Shown one piece after another: positions 25,423-64,000 of a stretch of 64,000 bases of DNA; position 1 is the first letter of the stretch, and every line of letters begins with the position of its first letter. Origin of the DNA: an uncultured bacterium (lineage in GTDB: Bacteria > Patescibacteriota > Minisyncoccia > UBA6257 > 2-01-FULL-56-20); the NCBI GenBank assembly GCA_963844965.1, contig CAWJQC010000007.1, positions 256,001-320,000 of the forward strand, given 5' to 3'. The notes beneath the pieces are model-generated. The model saw nothing but the letters and a program-made list of their open reading frames with translations, made no database searches and was not told the DNA's origin. The translations under genes were made by a program, and so were the position numbers.

Positions 25423-25436
25423 GACACAATGGTAGT

Positions 25437-26456: not shown

Positions 26457-26475
26457 GCCCCGCCCTCCTGCCCCT

Positions 26476-44228: not shown

Positions 44229-44359
44229 CATTCAGCTTTCGTTATCGAGGAGACGCGGTTGCGTCCATTTGTGCTACATTTTCCAAAGATGTTGGCAAGT
44301 AAATTAGAAGAGAGTAGGCTATATTGCGGATAGTAAAATAGCTGTTTCGATACAAAAGC

Positions 44360-46500
44360 ATGCTAGAAAAGATAACCTCAATCAAAAATGTGGGTCGGTT
44401 CCGCAACAGTCCTGCTACTGGTGACGTGACTTTCCGTCGCCACACAATGATATTCGCCGAGAACGGGAGGGGTAAAACAACTCTTTGTGCCATCCTACGC
44501 TCGCTGTCCACCAACACACCCGCCTTCATCATCGGGCGCAAGACGTATCGGCGGCAACGGTCAGCCGGAAGTCCAACTACTTCTCAACGGCGACTCCGTA
44601 ACATTTCATGATGGAGTTGGAGTGCTCCGTTCCCGAACGTGGCGATCTTTGATGGGACCTACGTCAGCGAAAATGTGTTTGCGGGTGACGTGGTTGATAC
44701 CGAAAACCGACGTAACCTTTACCGCGTTATTATTGGTGCTCAAGGCGTGGCTCATGCTGGCCGACTCAATGATCTCGATAACCAGATCAGGACTAAAAAT
44801 AATGAAATCAGGGATGTCAGAGCGCGGATGCAACCTCATATGCCGCCAGGTACAACAGTTGAAGATTTCATCGCCTTACCCGAAGATGCGACAATCAGTG
44901 AGAAGATTTTGGCGAAAGAACAGGAACTTCAAGCGGTACAACGTGCTGCTCAGTTACAGCAAAAACAGGGTCTAACAGCAGCTGCGGTACCGACCTTTCC
45001 CGCATCATTTGCTGAGACTCTTGGCAAAACTCTTGAGAATCTTGGGGCAGGCGCCGAGAAGCTTGTCGCCGATCACATTTCACAGCATCAAATGCGAACG
45101 CATGGGGAGACTTGGCTGAGGGATGGCCTCCCTTTTGTGGTCGATGAGTCATGTCCATTCTGCGGGCAATCGCTTGTAGGCGTCGATTTGATTCAGGTAT
45201 ACAAAACTTTTTTCAGCAATGAGTACCACGCGCTGCGTAGTGAAGTGATGAAACTAAGTGCGCAGGTTGAGGGTGTGCTCGCGGAGCGTGTATCTGCGGC
45301 AATTGAACAAACGCTTTTACAGAACAGCAACAACGCCGAGTTCTGGCAACAATATTGTGATTTCGTGCCGCCCGTTCTGCCGGGAGCGGAAAGGCTTGGA
45401 GAAATTATCACCGCGCTCCGGCAATCCGCTCAGTCTCTTTTACAAATAAAGTCGGGGGCACCGCTTGACGCAGTGCCACCGGACGAGGGATTCACTAAAT
45501 CACTTGTCGCATTCGAGGCCTTACGCACCTCCCTAGCCAACTATAATGCCGCAGTCGCCGCAGTAAACGTCACAATTGAAGCCAGAAAGCGTGCTACGCA
45601 GGCAACGAATGTGCGCGAAGTTGAAAATGCGGTCGCCAAACTGAAGGGGCAAAAGAATCGCTATACAGTGGGCGTGCAGGAACTTTGCGCGACCGAGACG
45701 CGTCTACAGGGTGAAAAGAAAATTCTCGAAAACGAAAAAGCGCTGGTGCGAGGTCAACTGGACACTCATACGGGACAGGTAATCACCCAATATGGCCAAA
45801 TCATCAACCGTTTTCTGGAGCGGATAAATGCGGGATTCAGAATCACTGTGCCATCACACAACTACCGTGGAGGAACGCCGAGTACGAGCTACCAGATTCT
45901 TATCAATCAAAATGCGATTGATTCTTGGAGACGCAGCGACGCCGACAGACAGACCGAGCTTCAAGAACACTTTGAGTGCTGGCGACAAAAGCACATTGGC
46001 TCTCGCATTTTTTCTGGCACAACTTGAGCAGGATTCGGATCGTGCTCAAAAAATAGTCGTTTTCGACGATCCTTTCAGCAGTATGGATAGTTTTCGAAGA
46101 AATCATACGATCCATCAGATATCCAAATGCGGGGAAACATGCGTTCAAGTAGTCCTTCTTTCGCACGAACCATCATTTCTAAAATTGCTGTGGATCGTGG
46201 GCACCGGCAGACCGGAAAACGCTCCAGCTGGCACGTGTAGGAGAAGAGAACACCGTCATCATTGAATGGGATATCGAGAAAGCGGTCCAGGCACGTTATC
46301 GGGCCGATATAGAAGCGTTGCAAGGATTTTTTTCATTGGGCAAAGGCGATCAGCGGGAGGTGATTCAGAAGCTACGACTGGTGCTTGAGGCGTATTGCCG
46401 AACACTCTATCCAACGCTCATCGGTGAGGATACATTAGGTGTCATTGTAGAAAATCGGCCACGGCAGCTACACAATTCCCCTCCATCTATCGCGGGATGA
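44360..46500 (+). pseudogene. AAA_13-family (RloC/PrrC-like) ATPase gene broken by at least 4 frameshifts
   Basis: Pieces in four frames: Walker A IFAENGRGKTTLCAIL, NVAIFDGTYVSENVF, zinc-hook-like CPFCGQSL, SFKNTLSAGDKSTLALAFFLAQL, Walker B IVVFDDPFSSMD, H-loop LLSHEPSFL, and a C-terminal helical region. Confidence 0.6.
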
Positions 46501-46996
46501 TCCTCCAATCAATATATTTATTGCCGTCGCTGTATCATGGTGAAAGCCCCGCTGCTGCGACCGATATATCGACGATGCAGAGCTCCAAGGATATGTCGCA
46601 CGCACTCTGAAACTCGTTGGATGTCTTTAGCGCAAACTCCTATTGATAGCATCATACAAAAACTTGCCGGATTATCCGTTCCGAAGCTAGTGAACTTTTA
46701 TTCGGCCTTCAAGCTTATGACCTTATCTCTCACCACAAACTTGCTCTTGATGAGCGAGAGTAATTCTCGTTTCTCGGTGGGATTACCGTCATTTAGTACA
46801 TATGCTGCGTATCATCTCGCGTCGAATTCGGCATCATCCTGCTTTATCGCTCTCACACCTAGGAATGATTTCTGGAATTTGGCGACGCGTTTTGTTTCCT
46901 CGATAAAACGCTGTTTGATATCGGACTCGTTAATATCCAATTTGCCAATTAATCGATAAGCTGTTTAGTGAGCTCATCTTCGCGCATATATTTGTT

Positions 46997-47957
46997 CTAA
47001 CAGAACGTATCTCGCGACCGACAGCAACCGTAGTAGACGTACTTGGTCGTCGTACCGTCTTTAAGCTTCTTGAATTTCTCCTGTGCGCTAATGGTCGACC
47101 CGCAGAGGCCGCAGGTGAATAGTTTCGTAAAGGCGAATTCCTTGACCTCAGCATTTCTGAAAAGACTATCTTGCTTTAGTTGTTCCTGGGTTGCTTCGAA
47201 TATTTCTCTTGTGATGAGTGCCTGATGTTTCCCGGTGTACCAGTTACCGCTCCCTACGGGGTATTCGAATACACCGTAATAAAAGGTGTTTTGGAGCAGC
47301 CGATAAAGATTGCCCAGTGCCAGATGTTTGTTGCCTGAATTTGTTCGGAAATTAACTTCAAATTTGAGCCAATGAAATAGCTTCCTGCCGCTCCAGCCAT
47401 TGGCCACCTTCTCAAACATCTGTTTAACGACCGGGGCGCGTGCGGGGTCGATTATGACGCTACCTTTACGATCGACACGTTTCTCGGTCAGATATCCAGT
47501 AGGAGCCTGCGCGGGCCACAGCCCCATTTCGCAGCGCATCCGCAGTCCTCGCTTCACGTTTACACTCTTATTGTCGTTTTCAAGCTTCGCCTGAGAGCAT
47601 AGGATCATTAGCAAGAACTTTTCGTTCGGTGAGTTGGCAAATCTTTGTCCGTAAGTTCGGATCTCATGAGTAACTTCTGATCCATGAGATCCACGAGGAT
47701 CTGAGGTCGCCCGCGTTCCTACTTAACCGATCCGGTGCCCATGTGAGAATTCCTGTATATCGGCCGCTTCTAATATCCTTCAAAATTTCCAGAAACACCG
47801 ACCGCTCGCCTGAGCTTTTTGCCGAGTGGGATTCCCGCCGGATGTCGACAATTTCCAATGCTTCGCGTTCGGCGATAAGAAGCATCTCCTTAATTTGCGA
47901 ATCAATGGAGAGAATCTGTTTTTCTTCCGACTCAGTGCTCTTTCTCGCATAAAGCAC
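46997..47957 (-). pseudogene. Decayed large serine recombinase (frameshifted, C-terminally truncated)
   Basis: ORF 47664..47957 is the resolvase N-terminus (YARKSTE...SIDSQ); ORF 46997..47614 is the recombinase domain plus zinc ribbon; about 65 percent identical to the intact copy at 57135. Confidence 0.65.
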
Positions 47958-48151
47958 GTATTTGACCTTTACCTCGGGCGGGATTGTTGTAGGGTCCCGC
48001 TCCCTGCGCCCCCGTGGTTTGGGTGGTCATACCACAATGGATGACGCAACCTCGCCAGAGAGTCCAGACCCCCTGAAAGACCCCAAAAGCCCTACCTAAG
48101 GCGAGCGCTAAATCGCTATAAAAATCGTCTAAATTAAGCTAAAATGGTGCT

Positions 48152-50943
48152 ATGGCACTGAGCTGGAACGAATTCGATCACGAGCTACTGGCTTCGCAAA
48201 AGAGTATGAATCGGCGAAACGCCGAGATACAAGATTACGCCGATTTTTCGACAGATTTTTTTAATATCTTTGGCGTCCGGCGTCGTTCGGTTTCTATCTA
48301 TCAAAAAGCGGTCCAAAAGATAAATGGCAACACGGGATTTATTAATCTTTTTTGGCCGAGTGTATTGCTCGTTGAACATAAGTCGAAAGGAGAAAACCTC
48401 GACAGCGCCTTTCTCCAGGCAAGCGATTACATCTTAGGACTCCCCGAGGAGGAAAGGCCCCGCTACGTAATTGTCTCTGATTTTGAGCAATTCGTTTATA
48501 TGATCTCGAAACGGAAAGTGAAAAAACTGAAATTCACGATATCGCGTTATCAAAACTCGCGTCGCATATACGCCTCTTTGGATTTATAGCTGGCTATAAA
48601 GTACGTAAATATAAAGAGGAAGACCCCGTCAATAAAAAGGCGGTGCGTTTGGTCGTGCAGCTATATCAGGCGCTGTCCGATGGAAATTACCCGAAGGAAT
48701 ATCTCGCGCGTCTTATGGTCCGTTTCGTGTTTCTCTTTCTTCGCAGACGATGCGGGTATTTTCCCAAAACGTGATATTTTCCGTGATTATATGCTTTATC
48801 TCACCAAGGAAAATGGTGAGGATCTCGGTGGGCACTACATCAAATTTTCGAGATTTTGAATACCCGGAGGATAAGCGCCAGCAGGCCCTTTCTGACGATC
48901 TAAAAGACTTTCCCGTATGTGAATGGGACTCTTTTTAAGGATCCCTTACCGCTGCCGTTTTTCAATAAGGAAATGCGGAGCGAAATTATCCGCGCAGCGC
49001 AATTCGATTGGGGCGCTGTGTCGCCTGCGATCTTCGGTTCGATGTTCCAATTCGTGATGGATGTTGAGGACAACGATATACGGCACGACTTTGGGGCGCA
49101 TTATACTTCAGAAAAAAATATCTTGAAGGTTGTGGACGGCCTCTTTTTGGACGATATAAAAAATGATCTTGAGGCCGCGGGTCAGAATCGGGCAAAACTG
49201 AATGCTCTGTGGGAAAAGATCGCCGAGATGCGGCTTCTCGACCCCGCCTGTGGTTGTGGGAACTTCCTTGTCGTTGCCTATCGAGAACTCAGGGTTGTCG
49301 AGCTTGAAATCATCACACGCCTGTTTCGAGATGAGTTAAAGCGGCTAGAGCAACCAACGCTTGGTATCAAAACCGATGTCTCAAAAATCTCTAAGCTTAC
49401 TCTCGAGCACATGTTTGGCATAGAGATTCTTTCGTTCCCGGCGGAGATCGCCCGTCTATCGTTGTGGCTCATTGATCATCAGATGAACGTTATGCTTGGA
49501 AGTCTATTCGGGGAATATTTCGCGAAGCTTCCTCTTAAAGAGCAACCCCATATTTTTCACGGAGATGCGCTTGCTGTTGATTGGGCGCGACTTGCGCCAC
49601 AAGGAGATAATTTTTCTTATATCCTTGGCAATCCACCCTTCATCGCGAAGCAAGATAAAGTCCTGATCAAAAAGCTGATATGCATAGAATATTTGGCGAC
49701 TTGAAAGGCGCGGGCGAATTAGATTATGTAACGGCATGGTATGCAAAGGCGGCCGATTTCATTCAAGGGACCGGAATCCATTGCGCCTTTGTTTCAACCA
49801 ACTCGATTACCCAGGGAGAACAAGCTGGAATTTTATGGCCACTATTGCTCCAGAAAGGAGTCCATATCAATTTCGCGCACAGAAACATTTCGTTGGACAA
49901 ATGAAGCCCCTGGGCGAGCTGGTGTGCATTGTGTCATCGTCGGTTTCTCGCTTGAAAAATCGGCTAAGCCGCTTTTATGGGACTACGACGATCCAGCCGG
50001 AAATCCCCATCTTGTAAAAGCAAAAAACATTAATCCATATCTTGTCGATGCTGATGATATTGTCGTTTTACCCCGACGGAAGCCGCTCGCCGATGTCCCG
50101 GAAGCGCAATTCGGGAGCATGCCGAACGACAGCGGATTTTTACTCTTTGATGACGGGGCCAAAAAGGAAGAGTTTTTACTTCAGGAGCCGGGAGCTGAAA
50201 AGTTTATCCGCCCGCTCCTTTCCGCAAAGGAATATCTAAATGGATCTCTGCGATATTGTTTGTGGCTTAAAGAGGCAACACCTCAAGAATTGCGTTCAAT
50301 GCCGTACCTCATGCGTCGCGTTGAAGCCGTACGAACGTATCGCGATCTTTCTTCCCGAGCGGCAACTCGCAAACTTGCCCGAACACCCTACCTTTTTGGA
50401 GAAGATCGACAACCAGAAGGTAATTACGTTCTGATCCCTCGGGTGAGTTCTGAAAGGAGGAGATACATTCCATTTTCGTTTTTTGGGCCGGAGTATATCG
50501 CTGGTGATACCTGTATCATAGTTCCAAATGCCGCTCCTTATCATTTTGGCGTCCTCCAATCCGTAATGCATATGACATGGATGCGTGCAGTGTGTGGACG
50601 CCTCGAATCTCGATATCGCTATTCAAACGAATTAGTTTATAACAATTTTCCGTGGCCGAAGGATGTTTCTAATGAACAACGGGCGTCGATAGAAAAAGCG
50701 GTGCAAAATTTATTGGACGTTCGCAAGGGATGTCGCGGAACACTTGCGGATCTGTACGATCCAAACGTGATGCCGCGAGAGCTTCTCGAAGCCCATTCGG
50801 CACTCGATAAAGCAGTCGATAACGCCTATGGCATGTTCCGTGGCTTCCCCTCGGAAGCTGAGCGATTGAAATTTCTGTTTAAATTGTATGAAGACTACCT
50901 CCGTGCGGAGCCTACCCAATTCGAGCGTAAGGTTAAGAAATGA
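48152..50943 (+). pseudogene. MmeI-family Type IIL restriction-modification enzyme gene (nuclease, gamma-class N6-adenine MTase, TRD) broken by at least 5 frameshifts
   Basis: Family signatures read across frames: N-terminal PD-ExK region LLVEHKSKG; linker motif LFGFIAGYKVRKYKEEDPVNKKA; FPYVNGTLF; HYTSEKNILK; LDPACGCGNFL (motif I); ILGNPPFIAKQ (motif IV); C-terminal TLADLYDPNVMP...LDKAVDNAYG...ERLKFLFKLYE. Confidence 0.65.
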
Positions 50944-50964
50944 CGGCACCAAATTCAAAAAATA

Positions 50965-53830
50965 ATGGAGTACGTCATCCTCGATATCGAAACTACTGGC
51001 CTAGATAAGGAACATTCTTCTATTATCGAGATAGCTGCTATCCTCGTAGAAAAAGGAGGTGTCAAAAATAGTTATAGCTCTTTTGTTCATTATGATGGCG
51101 TTCTCTCGGAAACCGTAAAGCGGCTAACTGGCATCCAAGAAGAAGATACTCAAAAAAGCTCCACTAATAGCTGCTGTCATTTCTGAGTTGAAAAATTTTA
51201 TTCAGAAGCGACCCGTTGTTGCTCATAATGGATATTCCTTCGATTTCTTTTTTCTTGAACGGGAGGGGCTGAAACTGGAAGAAAAATATGACTCTATGGA
51301 ATTTGCCTTTTTTGTCATGCCCACGAACGCTCCTGGCCATTCGATCCCTGCGCTCGCGGAACAATTTAAGTTAGGCGAAGCTCCGCATCGGGCGCTCGGG
51401 GATTGCAAGCTCGAACTCACAATAATCAATCGTCTTCAAAAGGAATATGGAAAGAGAAAGAAATCAAAACGAGAAGTTCTTGCTCATGCCGCAGGAACGA
51501 CAGGATGGTGGTGGTCCAATTTCCTCTCGGGAGAGAAAGCTCCTACTGATCGAATTTCAAGCCTCATTGAGGCTTATGAGCCATACCGCAAAGAATATCG
51601 CGGGGCAGAAATGCTGGGATTTCAAACAGAAGTGATCGATATTGCAGAGGTTGAAAAATATTTTCAACCAGCGGTAAAAGCGGGCGAGAAAAACGGAGAG
51701 GATGATTACTCGGAAGATCGACCCGAACAACGAGAGATGGCGAAAATGGTAGCCACGGCGTTTAACAAGCATAAGCATGCGGTCATAGAAGCCGGTACAG
51801 GCACCGGAAAATCAAAAGCATATCTCGTGCCGTCGCTCCTTTTTGGACTCAAGAACCGCATACCGATGATCATATCGACCCATACCAAAGCACTCCAAGA
51901 TCAGTTATCCCTCAAAGAAATACCGCACATAAAGAATCTCATTCGGCCCGATCTGCGCGTTGCTGTTCTCAAGGGAAAACAAAATTACGTCTGCTTGGCA
52001 AAATTCGAGATTTTTGCCGAAGAAACTGTGAAGGAGCTTTCGCAACGATCCTTGTATGAGTTTGGTGAATCGGAAACTCGGTATTCAACACGCCTCGCTT
52101 ATTTATTGCTCTTCTCGTGGATTCTTGAAGCTGAGTATGGCGATTGGGACGAGCTGCCATACTGGATCAAAGAGCGGATTCCCAAATATATACAAGCCGA
52201 AATCTGCAATATCGATGAGCTTTGCGGCAATGGGACTTGCGACATCTATGACGCAGAAAAATGTTTCCTTGCTAAGGCCAGGCTTCGCGCACGTGATGCC
52301 GATCTTGTGATTGTAAATCACGCGCTTGCTCTTATGGGCATCATTATTGAGGATAAGACTCCCGAAATACCCAGTGAGCCAGGCGTCGATGTGCCTCCGA
52401 GTAAAATGTATAGTCATACGGTCTTTCCTAACGAGTCGAAATTCATCGTATTCGACGAGGCCCAACATCTTGAGGACGACGCAACTTCGGCATGGGAGCA
52501 TGTGCTCTCCCAGAGTTTCCTACAACTAATTCTCCAGCAACTTTATGGTAAGCGAGGCGTCCAGCAGCTTGTAAAATCTATCGCCAGCAAAAAAACTGAT
52601 GAACGACTCACGCGGCTTGCAGCAAATTTTGAGAGTGGCGAAGGCAACATAAAAATCGGCGTCGAGGCGCTTTTTAAAAATATCTTACCGCACCTCGTTT
52701 CCGAAAGTGATACACGGGAAACTTATACTATGCTCGATGAAATTCCCGATACCTCTCCGGAGCGGAAAGCGCTATTCTCTGAGCTACGGAGCTTGCGGCA
52801 ACGATTTCTTGATATTGCAAGAATATTAAGTGAATTTTCGGAAGAAACCGAAGTTCCAAGGATGCGCAAAACCCTTTCCGTCCGCTACAACACTCTTCAA
52901 CGGATCGTGCGCTCATTCGATGCCATTCTAGAAAACGATAACGTATATGTGAGATACCTCCAGCGATTCGGTTCAAGCGTTGAAATTAAAGCTGCTCCAC
53001 TCTCGGTCGGTCCATACCTGAAAGATTATGTCTACGATAATTTTGCTTCGGTAGTTATGACCTCGGCGACACTCACTGTCGGCAAACGGTTCAATTTCTT
53101 CGCGAGCCGCTGTGGGACATTATTAGTCGACAAAGAAAAGATTGGGTACAGACTTTTCCATTCCTCCTTCAACTACGAGAAGCAAGTTAAATTTTTTGTT
53201 CCGAAAGGAATTAACTATAAAGAAGATCGCGAAACCCATCTTGCGAAAAGCACTGAGTTTCTTAAAAAAGCGATTGTCGCCTCCGGCGGAGGCGCGCTCG
53301 TGCTTTGCTCAAGCCACGATCAGGTCGGAGAACTTTACCAAGGGCTCTCAAAGACACTTTCTGAAAACAATATTTGGCTTCTCCGGCAGCAGAAAGGCAT
53401 ATCAGTAAGCTCCGTCATCAGAGATTTTAGAAGGGACGTCGATTCGGTGCTTATTGGCACCGAGACCCTCTGGCAGGGCATCGATGTTCCCGGGGAATCG
53501 CTCCGCAGCCTTTTTATTTATAAGATTCCATATCGAATGCCTGGCCTTCCTCTCATCAAAGCCCGCCGGAAAGAGATTGAAGATAACGAGCGGGATAGCT
53601 TTGCCGAATATTATGAACCGCTTGCCGCTCTAATTCTCAAGCAGGGATTCGGGCGGTTGATCCGCAAATCCACTGACATCGGTATCGCCGTACTTCTCGA
53701 TGAAAACTTTCTTAAAAAGCCGAGCCTTATGAACTCCCTTCCGGAAGGCGTCCACCCTCAAGCTGCCGAGCCGGAAGCTATTTGCGAAGAACTTCATAAA
53801 TTACACTTGTTGCGACTGAAGGAGAGTTAG
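50965..53830 (+). CDS. dinG: DinG-family ATP-dependent helicase with an N-terminal DnaQ-like 3'-5' exonuclease domain; frameshift at about 51150
   Basis: Exo I ILDIETTGL, Exo II VAHNGYSFDFFFL, Exo III HRALGDCK; helicase Walker A AGTGTGKS and DEAH-like VFDEAQHL; the N-terminal 73-aa ORF and the 880-aa ORF join across an A6 run. Confidence 0.75.
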
Positions 53831-53862
53831 CCACAAGCCAGAAAATCAGCTATGCTTTTTCA

Positions 53863-54333
53863 ATGGACGCAACATTCGTAAAAGACCTCATCAAGGGGAA
53901 GATTGCCGAAATTATATTCGAGCAGATGTTTCGTGAGTCCGGCGAGTATACAATTCTCCATTCTGGCTATGAATATACCCTGCCCGAACTCGCGCAGTAT
54001 CAACATCTCACCGAGATAAAAGCAGTGATTGAGAACATAAGGAATGCGCCAGATTTCGTTTTAATTTCGCAAGATAAAAAACGGGTTTATCTCGTGGAGG
54101 TGAAATATCGGCGCAACCGCAATCCGCGCGAGCTAAAAAAAATTTGTGAAAATACCCTTCAGATCTGGAATCCTTCGTGGCTTTTTGTAGCATCTCCTGA
54201 TGGATTTTTCTTTGAGCCCTGCAACGATGTGGTCAACAAAAATGATGGGCAGATTGGACCCCTCTACGATAAGTGGGTAAAAAACGATGTTCAATCGGAA
54301 TATCTGAAACTCCTGAATCAGTTTGAGCTTTAA
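53863..54333 (+). CDS. Small PD-(D/E)XK nuclease-fold protein
   Basis: E..PDFVL...YLVEVKYR pattern (E, PD, ExK); 156 aa. Confidence 0.4.
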   Translation: MDATFVKDLIKGKIAEIIFEQMFRESGEYTILHSGYEYTLPELAQYQHLTEIKAVIENIRNAPDFVLISQDKKRVYLVEVKYRRNRNPRELKKICENTLQIWNPSWLFVASPDGFFFEPCNDVVNKNDGQIGPLYDKWVKNDVQSEYLKLLNQFEL

Positions 54334-54340
54334 ATTGAGA

Positions 54341-55841
54341 TTAACCAATCTCTTTTTCCAAGTTCTCCAATATGCGTACCATCGCCATCGTGTCGAGGCC
54401 ACAATAGAGCAGCATGTCCCGCTTGAGTTTTTCCTTTTCAGCTAGTGGCGTCTTGGAATCCGTAAGCCGCGGCCAGCTGACAGACGCCGTGCTCCCTTCC
54501 TGAATGGCGAGATTCTGATACGAAAGTTCGGGCACGAGGACCGGGAGAATCGCCTTGATGGACGCGCTCCCATGGAAACCTTGCATCCACGAACATCTTT
54601 TTCTTAAATATAAGCATCAGGTCGTAGACGCGGTTGTTCACCGCCTCCATGAAATCGGCATATTCTGGATATTGCTCTCCGATCTCCTTATTCCTTGGCA
54701 CTTCGAATGGAGCGAACCATACGATGACAGTTCCTTTCGTGCCGATATCCGTTTTGAGTTGCGCCACCATCTCCGGAATGGGATTTGCGTCCTTCACCGC
54801 CAAAAACTCCTTTTGCTCCGCCTCGGCCTTGGGCGTTTTCTTAATGTGAAGTGAGTATTGAAAAACTATCTTCTGCCACGGACGCGTGCCGTCATAGGGT
54901 GGTATGGGTGAGGCAAACGTTTCATAATCCAAAAAGTAGATTGGGTAAACGAGCGCCGCGAGTTCCTTTTTTATCATCGCGGCATCCATCGTTTTTTCCA
55001 CTGGCGTATACCCAAGGCCACGCAGAAATACCGCAGAGAGCGAATTCGCGTCAAGAGTTCCTTTTTTCAACAAGCTGAGGGTGAAGGCTGGTGGCCAGTT
55101 CTTGACATCCAATTTTTTTGCCGGGGCCTTGGAGAGGTAAAATTCCAAGTGGTCGCACGAACCAGTCTTCGACTTGCACGAAAGGATAACGCGATTGTCC
55201 GGGAAGTCCTCGATGGCGAGGAGGGCGAGGGAATCTGCTATGCTTGTTTTAATCTCAGGCACAAGATCACGCGCCTCATCAGTCACATCCTCAGTTATAA
55301 AAAACTTCTTGGGCTCTACGTTCCCTTTCCGTACATATTCATTGTTTACATGAATAATGAAAGTTTTCCCCACTTTGATGCCAGCTTCTTCAAAACAAAT
55401 GAGCTGGAACGCAACATCGCGTAAGTCCTCCGGCCGAACCTTTGTTGCACTCTTCACCTCGCGGATATCGTAAGCATCCGCCGTTTGATCATAGGTCACA
55501 ATATCTGCGCGGCAGGTCAATCCGGTCTTTGTGACGACGGTCGGCTGGAAAATAACTTTTTGTTTTTCGTCAAAGAGTGTTTTGCTTTTGCGCCAACCTT
55601 CCTCGTTAAAATCAAAAAGTTCTATGCCATCCTTATAGAGCTGCTTTGCGAGTATATCCACCTTTTCACCTTCCTGTTGATGGAAGATCTCTGATGCCGA
55701 GGGAAGCGGCATAAGATGTTTGCCTTTTCTCGCCATCCAAAGGTAACAACCGCATTCGAGAAAGTTCTTGTAGTCGGTCTTCGTGAACAGTTTAGCCATA
55801 GTTAGTTCTTCATTTCTATCACGTTGAGCAGCTTTTCGCAA
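54341..55841 (-). CDS. DUF2779-family protein (Cas4/RecB-like nuclease N-terminus plus DUF2779 C-terminus); frameshift near 54600 in an A-run
   Basis: N-terminus LFTKTDYKNFLECGCYLWM; YFLDYETFASPIPPY; C-terminal piece GSASIKAILPVLVPELSY lies in ORF 54341..54586 in another frame. Confidence 0.55.
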
Positions 55842-56095: not shown

Positions 56096-57007
56096 ATGGC
56101 CTTATTCTCCATCTCAAACGGCAGCACGAAGAAAATATCATCCGTGAAAATCGGGCTTGAAAAAGACGTCCAAAAACTCTTCGAGAAAAACCTTGAGGAG
56201 ATTTTGAATATCACATTCCTAGCATCAGAGTATTCAACGAGCTTCGGCGGACGAATCGATACGCTGGGTATGGATCATAACGGAGCGCCAGTGATCATTG
56301 AATATAAGCGGTCGCAAAATGATAGCGTCATCAACCAAGGCCTGTCATACCTCCGATGGCTTCTTGATCACAAAGCGGATTTTGAAGCGCTGGCGCACCG
56401 ATTAAAAATTGAGATTGAAATTGATTGGGCTTCTCCGCGCGTTATCTGCGTGGCCGAGAGTTACAATAAATTTGACCTCGATACCGCCGATCTTCTGCCG
56501 ATGAACATAGAACTGTTACGCTACAAGATTTATGAACAAAACATTCTTCTCGTTGAACCAGAAGTGCAACGCAAAATAAAAATATCCACGTCGGAAGTAT
56601 TCGAGAAAACAACGCGGGAGAGGCACGAGTTTAAAGAACAGATCAAACACACCATCGAAGATCATTTGAAATCAGCAAATCCCGCCATCCGCGATCTTTT
56701 TGCCGCCATGAAAGAGAAAGTTCTTGCGCTTGACGAATCAATCAGCGAGGAGCCGAAAGCGCATTACATTGCCTACAAACTGGTGAATAATTTTGTGGAT
56801 GTTGCGGTGCAAAAGGACGCCTTAAAAATTTTCCTCAACATCACGAGCGGCGCGTTAAATGATCCGACATCTCTGGCCCGCGACCTTACTAAGCCGAAAC
56901 CCGTTGGCCACTGGGGTAACGGCGACTACGAACTCAAGCTTGATCAACGGGAAAATCTCAATGCTGTGATGGCGCTCATCAAGCAAAGTTACGAATACAA
57001 CAAGTAA
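56096..57007 (+). CDS. NucS/RecB-like PD-(D/E)XK nuclease-fold protein with a C-terminal DUF5655-like domain
   Basis: GRIDTLGMDHNGAPVIIEYKR...QGLSYLRWL pattern; 303 aa. Confidence 0.45.
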   Translation: MALFSISNGSTKKISSVKIGLEKDVQKLFEKNLEEILNITFLASEYSTSFGGRIDTLGMDHNGAPVIIEYKRSQNDSVINQGLSYLRWLLDHKADFEALAHRLKIEIEIDWASPRVICVAESYNKFDLDTADLLPMNIELLRYKIYEQNILLVEPEVQRKIKISTSEVFEKTTRERHEFKEQIKHTIEDHLKSANPAIRDLFAAMKEKVLALDESISEEPKAHYIAYKLVNNFVDVAVQKDALKIFLNITSGALNDPTSLARDLTKPKPVGHWGNGDYELKLDQRENLNAVMALIKQSYEYNK

Positions 57008-57134
57008 AGCCCTTGTTCAGAAATACTGAAAATCCCCGCTGTAAACCAGAGGAGGTTTTCGGTTTCTTTTTCCATCCGCCCTAAAATAGCGCGGCGATTT
57101 TTCGTGTTCAAAAATAAACTAATTTATCATCACT

Positions 57135-59063
57135 ATGGCAAAACGAGGAAGACCGCCGAAAAATCAATTGACGGTCGCGCAACCAAAAACCGAATGTGCT
57201 CCGGACATGAGTAGTCTCAATAAGATGCCGAAGTATTGTTTGTACGCGAGGAAGTCATCGGAGAGCGAAGAACGGCAGGCACTCTCCATCGACTCACAGG
57301 TCAAGGAGATGTATAAGATCGCGGAGCGCGATCATCTCTCGGTCGTTGAAGTACTGACCGAATCACACTCTGCAAAAAGCACCGGATGCCGACCGATCTT
57401 TAACCAGATGGTTATAGGTGTTAAGGATGGCCGCTTTGAGGGCATTCTTACCTGGGCACCGGATCGTCTGAGTCGCAACGCAGGCGACTTGGGCCAGCTG
57501 GTCGATCTTATGGACAACGGCCATCTTGCGGAAATCCGCACGTTCGGGCAGATATTCAAAAATTCGCCCAACGAAAAATTCTTGCTTATGATTCTCTGCT
57601 CACAGGCGAAACTCGAAAATGATAACAAGAGCGAGAACGTGAAGCGAGGTCTCCGTGCTGCCGCCGAGCGAGGATATCGCCCAGGCGTCGCACTTGTGGG
57701 ATACACGAACAGTTATCGCAGGGATCATCCCGGCGAAGTGGTAATTGATAAACTGCGAGCCCCAATCATAAAGCTTATGTTTGAGAAAGCCGCAAATGGA
57801 TGGTCAGCGCGGAAGTTGGTGGTCTGGCTTCGCGGTATCAACTTTACGACGCGCAACGGAACATATCTCTATCTAAGCAGTGTTCATACGCTGTTGCAGA
57901 ACCACTTTTACTACGGCACGTTCGAATACCCTCGGGGCAGCGGCGCATGGCACAAAGGAAATCATAAACCGCTCATTACCAAGGATATGTTCGACCGTGT
58001 TCAAGCGCAGATTGAACGACGGCGCACCTCGCGCCGCTCGGAGCGGAAATCTTTTGGATTCACCCAGCTCATGCATTGCGGCATCTGTGGCTCCGGCGTT
58101 TCCGCCGAAGAAAAATTTAAGAAACTGGTAGACGGTTCACAGGCCCGCTATGTCTACTACGGATGCAATCGTTCCAAGGGGGTGAAGTGTACCAATACTT
58201 ACATCCGTGAGGATTTTCTGGTCCGGCAGTTTGTGAACATCATCGACGAGATATCGCTCGACGAGCTTGGCATACGAAAACTTCTCGGCGAGGAAACTGA
58301 GCGTGTCTTTCGGTTTCACAATGATGTCATGGGCGATCCTAACGCTTCGGAAACTCAAGAGAAAAAAGATATCGACATTAAAACCTACGCTAAATATCTA
58401 CTCGCAAGAGGCAACGCCGAAGAAAAAAGATTACTACTATGCAACATTCAGAACCGACTGATCCTTCGGGATAAAGCCGTATATCTGGAAGAAGTAGGCG
58501 GTCTTACCTGGAAGGACTATATTGGCCATATGAGAAAGTGCGCGAACTGCGGATCAAAAAACGTGAACGAGAGCGGACCGTATGCGAACTGGAAATTCGG
58601 CGATACGCCAATCGACGACACGCCGCGGATCGTGTATTTCGCTTGTCTCGACTGTGAGCAATCGTGGAAGCAGGTCAACGAGAATATCTTGCGATTAATG
58701 CGCGAGTATGTGGTGGTGCCAGAGGGAAACGGGGCGTGGATTAAAACACCTGGCGGCTCGGAGTTTTTCGCGACGCCGTCTTTCGCCGCGCGGTTCAGAG
58801 ACACGGTGGAGATAGACGGCAAAAAAGTGCCACCGAAAAAAATTCTCGGGGAAATGCTGTACTGGCCAGACAGGAACGCTTACGAGACGACGATCGAATA
58901 TGACGACGGAAGCGAACGGACATTTGATATCCCAAGTCTTCGTGGCAGGAACAATACAGAAGAAGGCATGAAGCCGATCAGCAATAAGGATGGTCTTATG
59001 GAGTACAAAGAAGGTAAGATGCAAACTTATTTCGGTCGCGGTCTCCAATATGACGGCCGATAA
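57135..59063 (+). CDS. Large serine recombinase (phage-type serine integrase)
   Basis: Resolvase catalytic domain (LYARKSSESEERQALSIDSQ), recombinase domain, Cys-rich zinc ribbon (CGICG...CNRSKGVKC) and a coiled-coil C-terminal region; 642 aa. Confidence 0.85.
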   Translation: MAKRGRPPKNQLTVAQPKTECAPDMSSLNKMPKYCLYARKSSESEERQALSIDSQVKEMYKIAERDHLSVVEVLTESHSAKSTGCRPIFNQMVIGVKDGRFEGILTWAPDRLSRNAGDLGQLVDLMDNGHLAEIRTFGQIFKNSPNEKFLLMILCSQAKLENDNKSENVKRGLRAAAERGYRPGVALVGYTNSYRRDHPGEVVIDKLRAPIIKLMFEKAANGWSARKLVVWLRGINFTTRNGTYLYLSSVHTLLQNHFYYGTFEYPRGSGAWHKGNHKPLITKDMFDRVQAQIERRRTSRRSERKSFGFTQLMHCGICGSGVSAEEKFKKLVDGSQARYVYYGCNRSKGVKCTNTYIREDFLVRQFVNIIDEISLDELGIRKLLGEETERVFRFHNDVMGDPNASETQEKKDIDIKTYAKYLLARGNAEEKRLLLCNIQNRLILRDKAVYLEEVGGLTWKDYIGHMRKCANCGSKNVNESGPYANWKFGDTPIDDTPRIVYFACLDCEQSWKQVNENILRLMREYVVVPEGNGAWIKTPGGSEFFATPSFAARFRDTVEIDGKKVPPKKILGEMLYWPDRNAYETTIEYDDGSERTFDIPSLRGRNNTEEGMKPISNKDGLMEYKEGKMQTYFGRGLQYDGR

Positions 59064-60845
59064 GCGTTGCCAGATGGCAAAATAACATCGCCGCTTCCGG
59101 AGGAATTGCTTGGAGTAGGGCTTGGCGGTGCACTTGCCGATGGAGATCCGTCGCTGGTCTCGGATGGTCCATTTCGCGGAGATGGTCCCAACGCCGCAGG
59201 CCGATGAGTACTGTCTGCGGAATTGTCGCCAGTGTTCGGCGGCGGTGGCGTAGAACGCGGAGCAAGACCCCATACTTGTAAATTGCCGAGGAGATCGGGG
59301 AGATTAACGCTGTAGCTGTCCGTGGGCAATGGCTCGGTATTTCTGCTGCGGCCCATGATCTCCACCTTGCCCGTATCCAGGTTAAGCCGCCCAATCACTG
59401 GCAACTGGCCATTCTCTCCAATCACGCTGTTCGCCATGAGGGTAAATGCGTCACAGAGGTCATCGAACCGCTCTATGCCAAATCCAATGAGCTGTTGCTT
59501 CAGGTGTGAATTCTCCGGGTCCGGCGCGAAGAGTATTGTGCCATTCTGAATAAGAGCGCTTGCGGTCATAAGCCGGGCGTGTTTGTCGGTGGCGATCTTT
59601 ACGCCGATCACCCTGCAATGTTTGGATTTTTCGAGGTACTCGATGGCCGACCGTTGATAGGCCACATCCTCGATCCGTATCTCGACCGCGCCGCAAAGCT
59701 TCGTGTACATATCATGGAGTTCCTTGAGGAGCTCCATCGTTTCAAGGAACGCCATCCTGCGGTTAATCGTCTTGATGACATACCCGTGGAAGTCCTTGCC
59801 GAATCCGGCGAAGAGGCCTACGACGATGCCCGTGTAATCAGCGGTTTCTTTTTCCGAGATCGCGAGGTCGACCCCGATGACCACCTTTTTGATTTTCTCT
59901 TTCGGCAATACTACCCAGTGCTTGATCCATTCCGCTTGGATCACGCGCTCGTCGCTCGTGACCGTTTGGAGTAAAAATTCCCTGCGCCACGTAGTGTCGT
60001 CACCGATCTTCCGTTTGAACGCCTCAAGTGCCTCGGGCGTCTTGAACTTCTCTGGCCACTGGCATACGCCTTCATCGTCAACGAGCGGATACCGCCGAAA
60101 GACACCACCACGCTCGCCTTTTTTGATTTGCTCGATAACGCGGCCGAGCAGGGAAAATTCGTGCAAGAAATTCCCGATGAGAAAGATCTTTGTCTTTGTC
60201 GTGCCCAACGGAATTATTTCCGATACGAACCAGCTATAGATGCGATCGCGGTTTTCTTTTGTCCGCGTCCCTTGCAGATCTTGCGGATCGTCTACGATCA
60301 CATAGTCCGGGCGGTATTGCTTGTAGCGCAGACCGCGCACTGCCTGTTGGGACGAGATCGCAATTATTTTTGCATCGAATTTCCTGAGGGTCATGCCGAA
60401 CGCGCCGCTCTCGTCGCCCTCCATATCGATCGGTCCGAAATCATTTCTGAGGAGGGGCGATTCAAGCGCCTTGCGGATGTTGGAGAAATGCGTCCGCACC
60501 TGATGGAGCGTATCGGACGCGATCACGATAAAGTGGGCGCGACCGCTGAGGATCAGACCACAGAGAGAATGACGTATTGAGAATCGCGCTCTTCCCGGAA
60601 TTTCTGAATCCGGCGATCACATAGAGATCATTGTCGTTCGACTCGGTAAGGCGAAACATATCTCGGTGAAAGTCCGCCATCGGGTCTTGGAGGTAGTCCG
60701 CAAGATAGATGTTAAAAAACATCGCGTGCGACCACTGGCCAAGCTTGCGCCGCAGGAGGCGGCTCTTGCGGATGATGTCGATGAAGAAATTGAACTTATC
60801 GGCATTGTTACTGTTGTCACTACTAGGAATTGGTAGGTTGTCCAT
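59027..60845 (-). CDS. Phage terminase large subunit (ATPase plus nuclease); frameshift near 60500
   Basis: N-terminal ORF 60462..60845 has Walker A GFRNSGKS; ORF 59027..60526 has Walker B PDYVIVDDPQD and nuclease GVDLAISEKETADYTGIVV. Confidence 0.65.
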
Positions 60846-61221
60846 TTTTGTTTTGATTAAAGAGGTTTATATAATCTGCGGGGAACCCTGCGAGGCGGAG
60901 GGCTTCGCGGAGGAGTTCGACCTCCTCATCGGTCAGCTCTTCGCGCAGATTGACGGTTCCCGAAAGCTCAAGCCTGCTGCGATACTCATCCTTGTTATTC
61001 TTGAGCCAGAAGATCGCCGCTTGCAGCTTGCCTTGCTTGATCGCCGTAATGACCTGACTTTCCGCAACATCCGAAATGAGGCCTTTGCCGTCGATCATCG
61101 CTTGGTCCACCGCTTTTGCGAAGGCAGGGTCGTCCTGTTTGTATCGGTAGAACGTTGTCCTGCCAACGCCCGCCTTCGCTGCGGCTACTTCCACGAATCG
61201 GCGTTTTCTTGAGCGACTCAA
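60823..61221 (-). CDS. Phage terminase small subunit-like HTH protein
   Basis: 132 aa, HTH (GVGRTTFYRYK), located immediately upstream of terL. Confidence 0.5.
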   Translation of the reverse strand: MSRSRKRRFVEVAAAKAGVGRTTFYRYKQDDPAFAKAVDQAMIDGKGLISDVAESQVITAIKQGKLQAAIFWLKNNKDEYRSRLELSGTVNLREELTDEEVELLREALRLAGFPADYINLFNQNKNGQPTNS

Positions 61222-61251
61222 GAATAACGTTTTTCTTTTCTTCTTGTGTCA

Positions 61252-62584
61252 TTAGATCTTTTGAGGCTTGATGCCTGTTATGCGCTCGACTCTTTTTAGG
61301 ATCACGGTGAGGTACACCGGAGATTTCTCCATCAGATAACAGCGGCGTTGCATTTTTAATGCAGCAGCCCATGTGGATCCGCTGCCCCCGAATGGCTCAA
61401 GGACGAGGTCGTTGCGCCTCGTAAGCACCTTGATATAGGGAACCAGGATCTCCACGGGCTTCGTGCCGAAAATGACGCCCTGCCCGGAATTCTTTTCGTC
61501 CGAGGCGACATGCTCGATGAAGTCCGTAGGGCAAAACTTTTTTCCTTTTTCGTAGGACTCCCATTGCGGTTTCCCCGAGGTGGCAAACAACGCGTTTTCG
61601 TACTCGTTCTGGAGCAGCTCATCGCCCTCGTCGTCAAGGTTCAGCACCACTTCACCGCCGGTTCCCACAAGCGCGATGTCGTGCTTGTTGAAGAATTTGT
61701 ATTTCGCTGCAAAACCGGAGACACGATTCGGAAGATGCCACGTGATCGTGTTCCGATATTTCCAATGTTGTTCTAGGGCGTTCCATATAGTCCGTAGATT
61801 CTTCGGATTTTCGAACACAATGATGGAGAAGTCTGGCTTTTGCACCTTGGCTACATTCGCCATCCAGAGATCCGTAAAATTCTCCGGCAGTGATTCCGTC
61901 TCGAGATACCTGCGATCGCGCTTCAAACCGAACCCCTCCGTCGCTTTGCCGTTGCGCTTCTTGCCGTGGAGGTAATCCAAAAGGTAAGGGGGGTCGGTGA
62001 AACAGAGATTCGCCCGCTCGCCGTTCATGAGTTTCATGATGTCGGCCTCTACTGTGCTGTCCCCACACATCGCCCGGCTGCCGTTCAGCTCGAACACGTC
62101 GCCCTTTTGAATCTCTATCTTGTCGATCTGGAGCTTCTGCAACTCCTTCGCGAGGTCAAATTCTTCTGGCGTTTCATCGAGCGCGAAGATTTTATCCAAC
62201 TCTTCGCTTGAGAACCCAATATCTTTCAAGATGGATTCATCGAACTCTGCGAGGGCCGCGATATCAAATTCGCCCGTGTTTTTGTTCAGCCGAATTATGA
62301 TCTCGGCCTCCTTCTCTGGATCAGGAACGTTGATACGAACGACAGGCACCGTCTCTACACCCATCTCGATCAGTACCTTTGCGCGGAAGTTACCGCCGAG
62401 GATCACGCCTTCGCGGCCCGGCGCACTGTTAATGACTAATGGATCGATTATGCCGTGGCGCTCGAGACTCGCGCAGTTGAGTGTTTGCCTCCTTGGTCCA
62501 TAGGCGAGGGTTCCTTTCGGGATGGCGTAGCGAAGCGAGAGGAACGTAATCGATCTTCAACTTTTCTTGTATGTCTTGGTCCAT
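61252..62584 (-). CDS. ParB-like nuclease domain fused to a DNA methyltransferase (phage-type); frameshift near 62470
   Basis: ParB N-terminus KIDYVPLASL...GIIDPLVINSAPGREGVILGGNFRAKV spans two frames; MTase motif IV CFTDPPYLL and motif I EPFGGSGST. Confidence 0.65.
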
Positions 62585-62714
62585 GTTTTTATTAATTTAT
62601 TTGTACGACTATATAAGTATTGTTTCACTGAACTTCAGTGCTTTTAACTGCTTTTAGTTGCTTCCCTAGTCAAAAAGAATAGAAAAAATGAGCCGCGCAG
62701 AGCGGCCCAATCAG

Positions 62715-63341
62715 TTACTCACAAGCAGACGGAAGAAAATTACTTTTGGAGCGGGTTTGTGAAAATAAACCCGTTGCGAGCCTTTTATTAATCACGGGTA
62801 GGCCGTCGGGGGTCTTCATCGGAAATCCGCGTTTCTGGGACATCGGTTTATGCTGTAAGTGAGCGAGGGCATTTGTGATGCGCTTCCGCCTCTCATCCTT
62901 ATTTGTGATGGAATTCTTTTTGCCCTCTTTCACAAAGTATCTATCGATCTTCTCATCAGACATAAAACCTTTCTCGTCCGCCTCGAAAAAAAGCGCTTTT
63001 ACCAGGAGAACGTAAAACGCTTCTTGGTCGAGAAAATCTATGACGTTGCCATTAGTGTAAAAGTTATTTTCCCAGTACTCAATGAGTCGTTTTTCTCCAC
63101 GGCTACCGTTGGCACCGCCACCTCGCTCTTTTTGTTTCACAAGATCGGCAATTTCCTTCATGGTGGCATGGTCAAGATGTACCGGGCGCGAAAGAGGAGG
63201 GGCAATAAATAGCTGTGGCTCGAACATTTTAGCCACAGTTTCCATTAAGGGACGCCCTATTCTTTCTAACTCCGCCCTGCCCTCTGGGGTTTTACGTAAC
63301 TCGCGGACCGTCATTTGTGACATATCTTTTTTTGTTCCCAT
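62715..63341 (-). CDS. Hypothetical phage-region protein
   Basis: 208-aa ORF, no motif recognised. Confidence 0.35.
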   Translation of the reverse strand: MGTKKDMSQMTVRELRKTPEGRAELERIGRPLMETVAKMFEPQLFIAPPLSRPVHLDHATMKEIADLVKQKERGGGANGSRGEKRLIEYWENNFYTNGNVIDFLDQEAFYVLLVKALFFEADEKGFMSDEKIDRYFVKEGKKNSITNKDERRKRITNALAHLQHKPMSQKRGFPMKTPDGLPVINKRLATGLFSQTRSKSNFLPSACE

Positions 63342-63429
63342 ATCTCTATTCTAAAGGATTAGCGAGCAAATCTCAAAACCAAACAGGCAAAACCGACCCC
63401 CTTCAGTCCTAAGTAGATGTTTCCGCGGG

Positions 63430-63603
63430 ATAAGATATAATTCAATTTATGGCTAAAAAACCGGTTTCGTTTATCGCTACCAAATATAAGGACAAGCCTG
63501 TTAGGGTCAGTTTTTACACAAAGAAGGGCGAACGGGTGAGTTTTGCAGCTGAAAAAAAAGTTCCCGTAAAAGTGCAGGTACGGTTCAAGGCTCGCAAAAA
63601 GTA
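63430..63603 (+). CDS. Small basic protein (57 aa), hypothetical
   Basis: ATG..TAG ORF read directly (MAKKPVSFIATKYKDKPVRVSFYTKKGERVSFAAEKKVPVKVQVRFKARKK); below the ORF-track length cutoff. Confidence 0.3.
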
Positions 63604-63606
63604 GAA

Positions 63607-64000
63607 TGGCGAGCACTTTTGATTACCAATTTGGGCTGACGGAAATTGTTCCATCAAAACAAGCAGACGCAAAAGAAGGACAGAAAGTTGCCGCCTTCAA
63701 ACAATTGGTTGATGAGCGAATAACGTCAGGGCTTCCCGGAGGGTTCCCATCAAAGAACGAAATCTTTATCGCCATATTACAGTTTTTTTCTGGCATAAAA
63801 GAATATCAAAGGCGTGATATCGATAATATCAGCAAAACGATTCTTGATTCCCTAAAGGGCAAGATTTATCACGACGATAGCCAGGTAAGGACGTTACTTA
63901 TAAGCAAGAAGGTTTCTTCTCGCGTCCCAGTAAATTTTGTTTTCGTTGGCATCAGGGAACTGCACGGCGAAACCGACGTCGAAATCGTTCGGGCCACCAT
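63607..64000 (+). CDS. rusA: RusA-family Holliday-junction resolvase (partial, runs off the window end)
   Basis: DIDNISKTILDSLKGKIYHDDSQV matches the RusA catalytic core. Confidence 0.55.

Follow-up and report, generated by a model that had tools for sequence, protein, structure and literature searches.

The stretch of DNA analyzed here (64,000 nt of a contig from an uncultured bacterium, in the following called the window) carries foreign-looking genes behind its tRNA-Glu(CUC) gene. According to our analysis the region from position 44230 to beyond 64000 probably represents one integrated island of a terminase-carrying, tRNA-associated family of elements that is abundant in the Candidate Phyla Radiation (CPR)/Patescibacteria. 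The family is the main result of this study and the locus in the window is a partly degraded member of it. Read on the minus strand, the locus is composed of a ParB-methylase, the small (TerS) and large (TerL) terminase subunits, a slot of ~11 kb, a short serine recombinase, an AAA_13 ATPase and the tRNA-Glu gene. The slot contains a long serine recombinase, which is antisense and abuts TerL, as well as DUF5655, DUF2779, a 156-aa gene, an exonuclease-DinG gene (Exo-DinG) and an MmeI gene (Table 1). A wider proposal, which we regard as possible rather than probable, is that CPR bacteria harbor a large undescribed family of elements which are self-packaging (TerS-TerL), methylase-protected, switched by a LexA-like repressor and targeted to tRNAs via a serine recombinase. 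These elements would be the main vehicle of defense genes (restriction-modification (R-M), CBASS, Thoeris, retron/reverse transcriptase (RT) and PDC candidates), and the window would hold a composite, partly dead member with a second, long-form recombinase.

The architecture of the family was derived from 80 metagenome loci around TerL homologs, which were analyzed by tblastn and clustering (referred to by L numbers). The TerL-like protein itself had thousands of homologs on chromosomal CPR contigs. The core operon consisted of a gene of ~135 aa, one or two (ParB-)methylases, TerS, TerL, 0–7 kb of variable cargo and a serine recombinase of ~440 aa. A LexA-like S24 repressor (Pfam 1e-28) was located divergently from the core operon in 27 loci, with cargo beyond the repressor. 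Further cargo was found past the recombinase, thus defense cargo was present on both sides of the core. The short recombinase was located downstream of TerL in 47 of 57 informative loci and was without exception (47/47) encoded on the TerL strand.

In all 16 loci where a tRNA gene was seen past the recombinase, at a distance of 0.2–8 kb, the first one lay on the opposite strand (p = 3e-5), therefore the 3' end of the tRNA faces the element. The same orientation of recombinase and tRNA was present in the window, in L056 and in L076. Genes for tRNA-Ser, -Gln, -Trp, -Arg, -Asn, -Tyr, -Asp, -Val and -Glu were involved. On the far side of the element the 3' end of the tRNA or its flank was present again as a direct repeat in L102 (a perfect repeat of 30 nt at a distance of 17.3 kb), L117 (15 nt at a distance of 16.3 kb) and L130 (21 nt, 90% identical). 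The repeat-bounded L102 contained SLATT, SMODS, the repressor, methylases, TerS, TerL, a serine recombinase as its sole recombinase, a type II R-M system and an RT together with a PD-(D/E)xK nuclease, and L117 contributed Thoeris-like TIR genes and a type III R-M system. Taken together, the two elements comprised CBASS-like, Thoeris-like and type II/III R-M genes and an RT. Besides these, methylases, a LexA-like repressor, both terminase subunits and one serine recombinase were present, and neither element contained a capsid, portal, tail or lysis gene.

The absence of structural genes extended to the wider family. A survey of 148 flanking proteins revealed RT, SMODS, ThsB_TIR, ThsA_Macro, type I specificity subunits and methylases, and no recurrent portal or capsid family was present among them. 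In viral contigs of 35–55 kb from IMG/VR with a TerL 33–37% identical, which served as a positive control, TerL was immediately followed by genes for portal, protease, major head and adaptor. Within 44230–64000 of the window, Pfam and PHROG searches yielded no portal, major capsid, tail or lysis gene. The interpretation of the terminase genes as prophage remnants, made in a previous sequence-only reading of the window, is not supported by these data, since the unit of methylase, TerS, TerL and recombinase without portal or capsid recurs in dozens of independent CPR contigs and in two repeat-bounded elements. At the family level an integrase, a repressor, own TerS and TerL and the lack of virion structural genes were found in combination, as in satellites of the type of the phage-inducible chromosomal islands (PICI). 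Three cargo clusters of the window recurred as cargo in other members of the family: c19, c20 (DUF2779), with homologs in L061, L062, L071, L149 and L150, and c48, with homologs directly after the recombinase and adjoining type I R-M genes in L091 and L120. The cargo of the island itself is of the defense type. No description of this family was found in the literature searched, including one paper on horizontal gene transfer in Patescibacteria, but coverage of that literature was incomplete and novelty is unproven.

On the 5' side of tRNA-Glu the window carries mraZ, rsmH, an FtsI-type penicillin-binding protein and a Mur ligase, and the latter assigns the genome to CPR/Patescibacteria (Paceibacteria/Parcubacteria-like). 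The site was compared in 53 related species-level genomes, the closest being 74% identical in the Mur ligase, i.e. none of them of the same species. The order from Mur ligase to tRNA-Glu(CUC) was kept in 48 of the 53 relatives, and not a single island protein was encoded in their flanks up to 10 kb from tRNA-Glu. Instead, housekeeping genes followed the tRNA 3' end, with a recurrent block of tpiA, SIMPL-like, GtrA-like, murB, hpf and secA genes, or with NUDIX, cofD, glmS or an aminoacyl-tRNA synthetase in other relatives. Pieces of the tRNA-Glu 3' end of 17–40 nt were present just 3' of the intact tRNA-Glu gene in L027, L034, L051, L053, L005 and L052; these look like scars of past integrations or excisions. 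Additionally, in seven of the 48 relatives (L011, L021, L026, L028, L029, L032 and L036) the contig ended 0–230 bp past tRNA-Glu, which suggests assembly breaks at a strain-variable site. Because of the housekeeping genes in the relatives, the contig breaks and the tRNA scars we consider tRNA-Glu a repeatedly used integration hotspot and the 20 kb behind it not ancestral. The region 3' of tRNA-Glu is thus a foreign island which is absent from the relatives.

These results bear out several statements of the sequence-only reading. The change from housekeeping to mobile and defense genes right after tRNA-Glu(CUC) was confirmed for every gene it named by profile searches. The comparison with relatives, which it had proposed, gave 53 genomes without the island genes, so that the gene set is not ancestral content shared next to tRNA-Glu. 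A discontinuity in composition at 44229, likewise proposed, was indeed present, although it was mild: the GC content fell from about 0.50 to 0.46–0.49 and the GC skew from +0.10 to +0.17 (35–44 kb) to about 0 (45–64 kb).

The pieces of tRNA-Glu in the relatives were located at L027:6402–6460, at +364–391 nt in L034, +147–168 in L051, +301–317 in L053 and +145 to +1425 in L005. The piece in L027 belonged to a different tRNA-Glu sequence type and was 97.5% identical to that of L002.

Of the two serine recombinases of the window, the long one is a large serine recombinase by its domains, with Resolvase, Recombinase and zinc ribbon in one intact polypeptide and a Y-x-R-x-S catalytic motif which reads LYARKSSESEE. 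Its nearest solved structure is SPbeta SprA/YokA. It was 64–75% identical over 92–97% of its length to about a dozen homologs of 590–630 aa and also matched thousands of homologs of ~440 aa at 55–58%, mostly from CPR bins. Compared with the ~440-aa form, the long recombinases possess ~190 additional C-terminal residues (58488–59063 in the window) including a CxxC-containing stretch. The short recombinase was 63–72% identical to the intact short recombinase of L056 and thereby nearer to it than to any long form. Its place proximal to the tRNA and on the TerL strand is that of the standard recombinase of the family. Between the short and the long recombinase of the window the identity amounted to 65% over a catalytic stretch of 85 aa, to which the previous estimate of about 65% applies, and to 56% over the recombinase domain of 205 aa.

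The neighborhoods of six long-form homologs were analyzed on seven loci (the protein is identical in L056 and L057). The long recombinase of L056/L057, L059 and L060 was convergent on a TerL-like gene of 458–489 aa as in the window, and this gene was preceded by a TerS-like gene of 125–152 aa and a ParB_N-methylase of 440–446 aa. Host-like genes started after only 1–3 small genes upstream of the methylase in L056, L059 and L060. In L058 and L143 the core was kept and the long recombinase was found at the other arm's end (LexA side), and in L144 no TerL was seen beside it. The layout of the window with two recombinases was found in L056 with both genes intact and a tRNA-Val gene 146 nt past the short recombinase. 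L062, whose TerL is 90% identical to that of L056 at the protein level, carried the short recombinase directly after TerL; in L056 the terminator hairpin of TerL is separated from the short recombinase by an extra segment of 9.4 kb, and the stop codon of the long recombinase lies ~70 nt from the left boundary of this segment. The two recombinases of the window therefore seem to form one recurrent architecture and not two unrelated insertions. This departs from the sequence-only reading, which had assigned them to two elements, as the short one occupies the standard position of the family and L056 shows the double layout with both genes unbroken. As an explanation of the layout, a simple inversion between the recombinase genes was considered and rejected, since the orientations of the shared cargo genes do not fit. 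When the DNA 3' of five long recombinases was aligned, no conserved attachment (att)-like motif was found.

Just upstream of the short recombinase genes we observed a conserved stretch (…GGTCTGGAC…GTTGCGTCATCC…), which was located at 48020–48075 (minus strand) in the window, at L062:1760–1800 and at 19300–19345 in the reverse complement of L056. It could be a candidate regulatory or recombinase-binding site. The motif GGTCTGGAC occurred in one copy in the island and its frequency in the window was not above chance. TCTGGAC-like motifs were present in the repeat-bounded element of L102 close to either end (L102:3495–3515 and 20733–20750), and the terminator hairpin of TerL in L062 contained one as well.

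TerL of the window was missed by Pfam, some of its homologs carry Terminase_6N/6C, and its profile gave a weak match to T7 gp19 in the PDB. Walker A, Walker B and acidic nuclease residues were conserved across the alignment of the TerL family. The frameshift in TerL was placed by a frame map against the 489-aa TerL of L056. The TerS-like gene shares 36% identity with a gene of 148 aa that L056 carries in this position, and a representative of the TerS family carries HTH_Tnp_1_2. The ParB-methylase is 71% identical to the 440-aa ParB_N-methyltransferase of L056. Within the group of L056, L059, L060 and the window, the long recombinases are 64–75% and the ParB-methylases 64–71% identical to each other, and the TerL genes between them are only about 37% identical or without detectable similarity. 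Judged from these identities, module swapping inside the core is suggested. The TerL frame of the window remains open for ~125 aa past the end of homology (59027–59413, minus strand) with a Pro/Ser-rich tail, which extends across the stop codon of the convergent long recombinase with an overlap of 37 nt; at this place L056 has a spacer of 172 nt with a hairpin instead.

Decay was unevenly distributed over the island. Lesions were determined from frame maps against intact homologs, among them a 761-aa Xanthomonas plasmid homolog for AAA_13 and a 909-aa Pseudomonas plasmid homolog for MmeI, and are listed by gene in Table 1. The tRNA-proximal block of AAA_13, short recombinase and MmeI contained 16–17 lesions in 6.2 kb. 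In the remaining island 3 lesions were found in 11.6 kb, which matches the single frameshifts of essential genes outside the island (PurD, FtsI and MurF). Remaining island and housekeeping genes taken together carried 6 lesions in 17.7 kb (binomial p = 6e-6 versus the proximal block). As nonsense codons were present in addition to frameshifts, the proximal block represents a genuine pseudogene block. An alternative genetic code was rejected as an explanation of the in-frame stops, because the pseudogenes use all three stop codons in frame (the short recombinase alone has TAG, TAA and TGA) and the long intact genes read normally. Since the proximal third is far more decayed, it is plausible that the parts of the island differ in age. 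The island is thus composite in age, consisting either of an old scaffold with a younger long-recombinase segment or of an old remnant to which a younger element with the long type of recombinase became joined.

The background of single frameshifts in essential genes could reflect assembly indel errors or a genome-wide pseudogenization. PurD, FtsI and MurF appeared split in comparison with intact orthologs, and the insertion in MurF (GAATTC to GATATTC) lies outside a homopolymer. Two further open reading frames (ORFs) at 20469–22193 and 21943–22491 overlap by 250 nt in different frames, so that this gene looks split as well. Another gene seems to be split in 25162–27296, where a 263-aa homolog aligned only from its residue 89 at 26796–27284 and 25162–26817 (1.6 kb) was devoid of an ORF of at least 150 aa.

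Three other explanations have to be weighed against a single island of this family. The island might have arisen from two successive integrations at tRNA-Glu, an older and now decayed element (AAA_13, short recombinase, MmeI) and a younger ordinary temperate prophage, which would be represented here by its integrase, terminase, methylase and RusA and whose structural genes would lie past the window. RusA, TerS, TerL and the ParB-methylase are genes typical of phages, relatives of TerL are known from real phages, tRNA-Glu has been used repeatedly as a site in the relatives, and the lesion density is ~7-fold higher in 44.36–50.94 kb than in the rest. The gene order, however, does not fit a prophage, as a recombinase and not a portal gene follows TerL in the window and in every island-type locus, the repeat-bounded relatives of 16–17 kb lack structural genes, and the host-like genes of L056, L059 and L060 begin shortly upstream of the methylase. 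Moreover, the short recombinase lies where the recombinase of this core module would be expected, and on the expected strand. The uneven decay anticipated by the sequence-only reading, with an older and a younger part, was found and the parts may differ in age, but the decayed block is proximal to the tRNA, where the simplest model of accretion would put the newer element. Altogether we consider this model of a decayed element followed by an ordinary prophage unlikely. That all genes are intact and of the same age, with the decay as an artefact of an error-prone (long-read) assembly, is even more improbable. PurD, FtsI and MurF do have exactly one frameshift each versus intact orthologs, more housekeeping genes in 20–27 kb look split and the single frameshifts in TerL, ParB-methylase and Exo-DinG fit this background rate. 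Such errors would nevertheless leave the excess of lesions in the proximal block unexplained, indel errors do not create the in-frame stops of the short recombinase and MmeI, and four island genes with a total of 4.7 kb were free of lesions.

A variant within the preferred reading of one island is that a canonical element, with MmeI as cargo of its slot, was later invaded just downstream of TerL by a long-recombinase cassette reaching from Exo-DinG to DUF5655. The uneven decay would then result from the younger cassette and from selection on terminase and methylase. The comparison of the empty L062 with the occupied L056 shows a clean left boundary with the long recombinase ~70 nt away, although L056 lacks a sharp boundary on the right. 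In four independent contigs with very different TerL the long recombinase borders on the 3' end of TerL, and canonical loci hold their variable slot of 0–7 kb at the same place; in L058 and L143, however, it is found on the LexA side, and a conserved att-like motif 3' of the long recombinases is lacking. In the window MmeI and Exo-DinG are separated by 22 nt on the same strand, which resembles an operon more than a junction. ParB-type methylases were present in four of five long-recombinase loci versus about 6 of ~70 loci with the short form only, and this co-occurrence suggests that the long recombinase is linked to the core rather than freely inserted. On balance the cassette is a possibility that we regard as less likely than its absence, though ahead of the prophage model.

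Several observations weigh against the assignment of the window to one such island. Its far end and any att repeat fall outside the window, and no LexA-like repressor was visible in the window, where RusA takes the usual place of the repressor. Its TerL was only 35–41% identical to all other TerL found, of island type or phage type, hence the membership in the family rests on gene order and not on close sequence similarity. The single lesions in TerL, methylase and Exo-DinG are not separable from assembly error, because essential genes are frameshifted too. For the family as a whole, direct repeats were detected in only 3 of the 16 tested loci, and a length of 15–30 nt exceeds most serine-integrase cores. 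Recombinase and tRNA gene are 0.15 to 8 kb apart, so that part of the tRNA adjacency could reflect tandem islands and not the target of the recombinase itself. The long recombinase occupies at least two different positions relative to the core, and no primase, replicase or other replication gene was noticed in the cargo surveys of the family. Finally, any excised, circular or packaged form of these elements is a prediction.

For intact members the following course is inferred as probable. The serine recombinase would integrate the element beside the 3' end of a tRNA gene and leave direct repeats of 15–30 nt. A loss of LexA-like repression would switch on methylase, terminase and recombinase, the element would excise, and its own terminase may package it into the capsids of a helper phage. 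In this way it would act as a phage satellite which ferries defense genes. Any mobility of the copy in the window would depend on the long recombinase, because the short one is dead.

The family resembles the phage satellites (PICI, capsid-forming PICI (cf-PICI), PICMI and P4-like elements with defense hotspots) in being integrated with a size of ~10–20 kb and in possessing an integrase, a repressor-controlled operon, own packaging genes, few or no structural genes, variable slots for anti-phage genes and a presumed dependence on helper capsids. It differs by a serine instead of a tyrosine recombinase and by combining both terminase subunits with a lack of capsid genes, whereas of the two subunits only TerS is found in classical PICIs, and cf-PICIs encode capsid proteins in addition. 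Further differences are the orphan (ParB-)methylase in the core, the lack of a recognized replication module and the CPR hosts; a helper phage and an induction by it are putative. With tycheposons and other tRNA-associated cargo islands it shares the location at tRNA 3' ends with partial tRNA repeats, the tandem or composite hotspots, the variable cargo and the streamlined host genomes. Tycheposons are described in one preprint as possibly carried in phage particles (bioRxiv 10.1101/2020.12.28.424599). The serine recombinase, the terminase-methylase core and a cargo mostly of defense genes set the present family apart from them.

The architecture of Resolvase, Recombinase and zinc ribbon is common to other elements with large serine recombinases, namely those with SPbeta SprA, phiC31, A118 and the SCCmec cassettes with CcrA/CcrB. 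The att core of SPbeta is 16 bp long, and SCC elements use two paralogous recombinases. In contrast to these elements, the recombinases of the window are 9 kb apart and in opposite orientation, one of them is dead, and neither mec-like cargo nor structural phage genes are present. Serine integrases rarely use tRNA genes: t(m)RNA genes served as sites for 4.9% of the serine integrases versus 44.5% of the tyrosine integrases, and the use by serine integrases was called previously unreported (PMC7192596). Unlike those, the members of the present family adjoin tRNA genes. Ordinary tailed prophages have TerS, TerL, RusA, ParB-methylase and integrase in common with the island, and the TerL of real phages of 35–55 kb is 33–37% identical. 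Phages, however, continue after TerL with portal, protease, major head and adaptor genes, whereas the islands continue with a recombinase or defense cargo.

CPR bacteria have tiny genomes with few known mobile elements or defense systems, and the route by which they exchange genes is an open question. If the proposal holds true, the family would serve as a major route for gene flow and for the turnover of anti-phage defense in a large part of bacterial diversity. It would extend the phage satellites to CPR hosts and provide the first broad example of tRNA-targeting serine integrases, which is of relevance for the bioprospecting of integrases for genome engineering. For the annotation of the window it follows that terminase genes do not mean a prophage and that two integrases can belong to what appears to be one conserved architecture. 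It has also to be considered that frameshifts, be they of the assembly or of the genome itself, affect even essential genes.

Table 1. Features of the island and of the adjacent genes in the window
Feature	Position	Strand	Lesions	Evidence and remarks
PurD (essential, outside island)	37719–39037		1 frameshift (about 38585)	compared with intact ortholog
FtsI (essential, outside island)	41087–42722		1 frameshift (about 41927)	compared with intact ortholog
MurF (essential, outside island)	42767–44054		1 frameshift (about 43784)	compared with intact ortholog
tRNA-Glu(CUC)	44157–44229	+		ARAGORN; 3' end faces island, presumed attachment-site side
AAA_13 ATPase (PADLOC candidate PDC-S06), pseudogene	44360–46633	+	5 frameshifts	Pfam AAA_13; PDC-S06 1e-30
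Short (~440 aa) serine recombinase, pseudogene	46710–48030	-	4 frameshifts, 2 in-frame stops	Pfam Resolvase and Recombinase on fragments
MmeI-type (type IIG) R-M gene, pseudogene	48152–50943	+	5 frameshifts, 1 in-frame stop	Pfam MmeI_N, MmeI_Mtase, MmeI_TRD, MmeI_C; PADLOC REase_MTase_IIG 2e-130
RNase_T exonuclease and DinG-like helicase (Exo-DinG)	50965–53830	+	1 frameshift	PADLOC DinG 8e-98
156-aa protein (cluster c19)	53863–54333	+	none	homologs adjoin core module in L085, L088, L104, L120
DUF2779, Cas4-like PD-(D/E)xK nuclease (cluster c20)	54438–55841	-	none	Pfam DUF2779 7e-35; weak PADLOC Cas4 match
DUF5655/NucS-like (PADLOC candidate PDC-S18; cluster c48)	56096–57007	+	none	Pfam; PDC-S18 4e-97
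Large serine recombinase, long form, 642 aa, intact	57135–59063	+	none	Pfam Resolvase 3e-20, Recombinase 4e-15, Zn_ribbon_recom 2e-7; PHROG integrase 3e-65
TerL	59027–60845	-	1 frameshift (about 60555–60580)	PHROG 38 3e-55
TerS-like	60823–61248	-	none	PHROG terminase small subunit families
ParB_N-N6/N4 DNA methyltransferase fusion	61252–62596	-	1 frameshift near N-terminus (about 62465–62502)	Pfam N6_N4_Mtase; PHROG ParB-like and methyltransferase
Two small genes, 208 aa and 85 aa	62715–63616	-		ORFs; upstream of methylase, same operon direction
RusA Holliday-junction resolvase	63606–64000, runs off window	+		Pfam RusA 9e-12 on 131 visible aa; divergent from methylase operon

The genes of the island were called from Pfam, PHROG and PADLOC profile searches. 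The AAA_13 gene and the MmeI gene, which had been described as broken and shattered, are both pseudogenes; the former is cargo between the short recombinase and tRNA-Glu, and in the latter all domains are present in the correct order without an intact single polypeptide. The decayed recombinase was correctly placed on the minus strand by the sequence-only reading, but it extends over about 46710–48030 instead of 46997–47957. Terminase subunits, ParB-methylase fusion and RusA were present as reported, with the addition of one frameshift each in TerL and ParB-methylase. Pfam RNase_T (1–67/164) matched an ORF of 73 aa, and Helicase_C_2 and DEAD matched an ORF of 880 aa in the next frame, thus Exo-DinG is probably a single gene with one frameshift at about 51187. 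Two further ORFs were rejected as genes of their own: 60462–60845, a candidate for a second TerS, is the frameshifted N-terminus of TerL, and 46537–46959 lies on the strand opposite to the short recombinase, at its decayed C-terminus. The genes of 208 and 85 aa upstream of the methylase had no match in Pfam, PHROG or PADLOC; L059 carries genes of similar size (205 and 86 aa) at the same place without detectable similarity to them.

The tRNA-Glu 3' end (…GGTTCGATTCCCCTATGCGCTAC) was not repeated elsewhere in the window according to searches for exact matches of at least 11 nt, for 22-mers with up to 3 mismatches and by blastn-short. The distal end of the island is therefore probably located beyond 64000, as is also indicated by L102 and L117, in which the boundary lies 4–5 kb upstream of the methylase. 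A generic search for repeats within 44–64 kb detected only the two recombinase genes as an inverted repeat and no att-like repeat. No exact-protein matches to three window proteins were found, the DNA of 57–64 kb had no match among deposited phages, and close relatives of the TerL and the long recombinase of the window were not found in IMG/VR.

Two minor features precede the island. An AT-rich inverted repeat of 34 nt (44076–44150, 79% complementary, 7-nt spacer) between Mur ligase and tRNA-Glu is probably a promoter or terminator region. At 33907–35505 a fusion of 532 aa, composed of an N6/N4 DNA methylase and an Mrr-type restriction endonuclease domain with a low GC content (0.43–0.46), adjoins the gene of ribosomal protein L10 ~2 kb ahead of tRNA-Val(CAC) (37478–37550) and may represent a second small foreign insertion.

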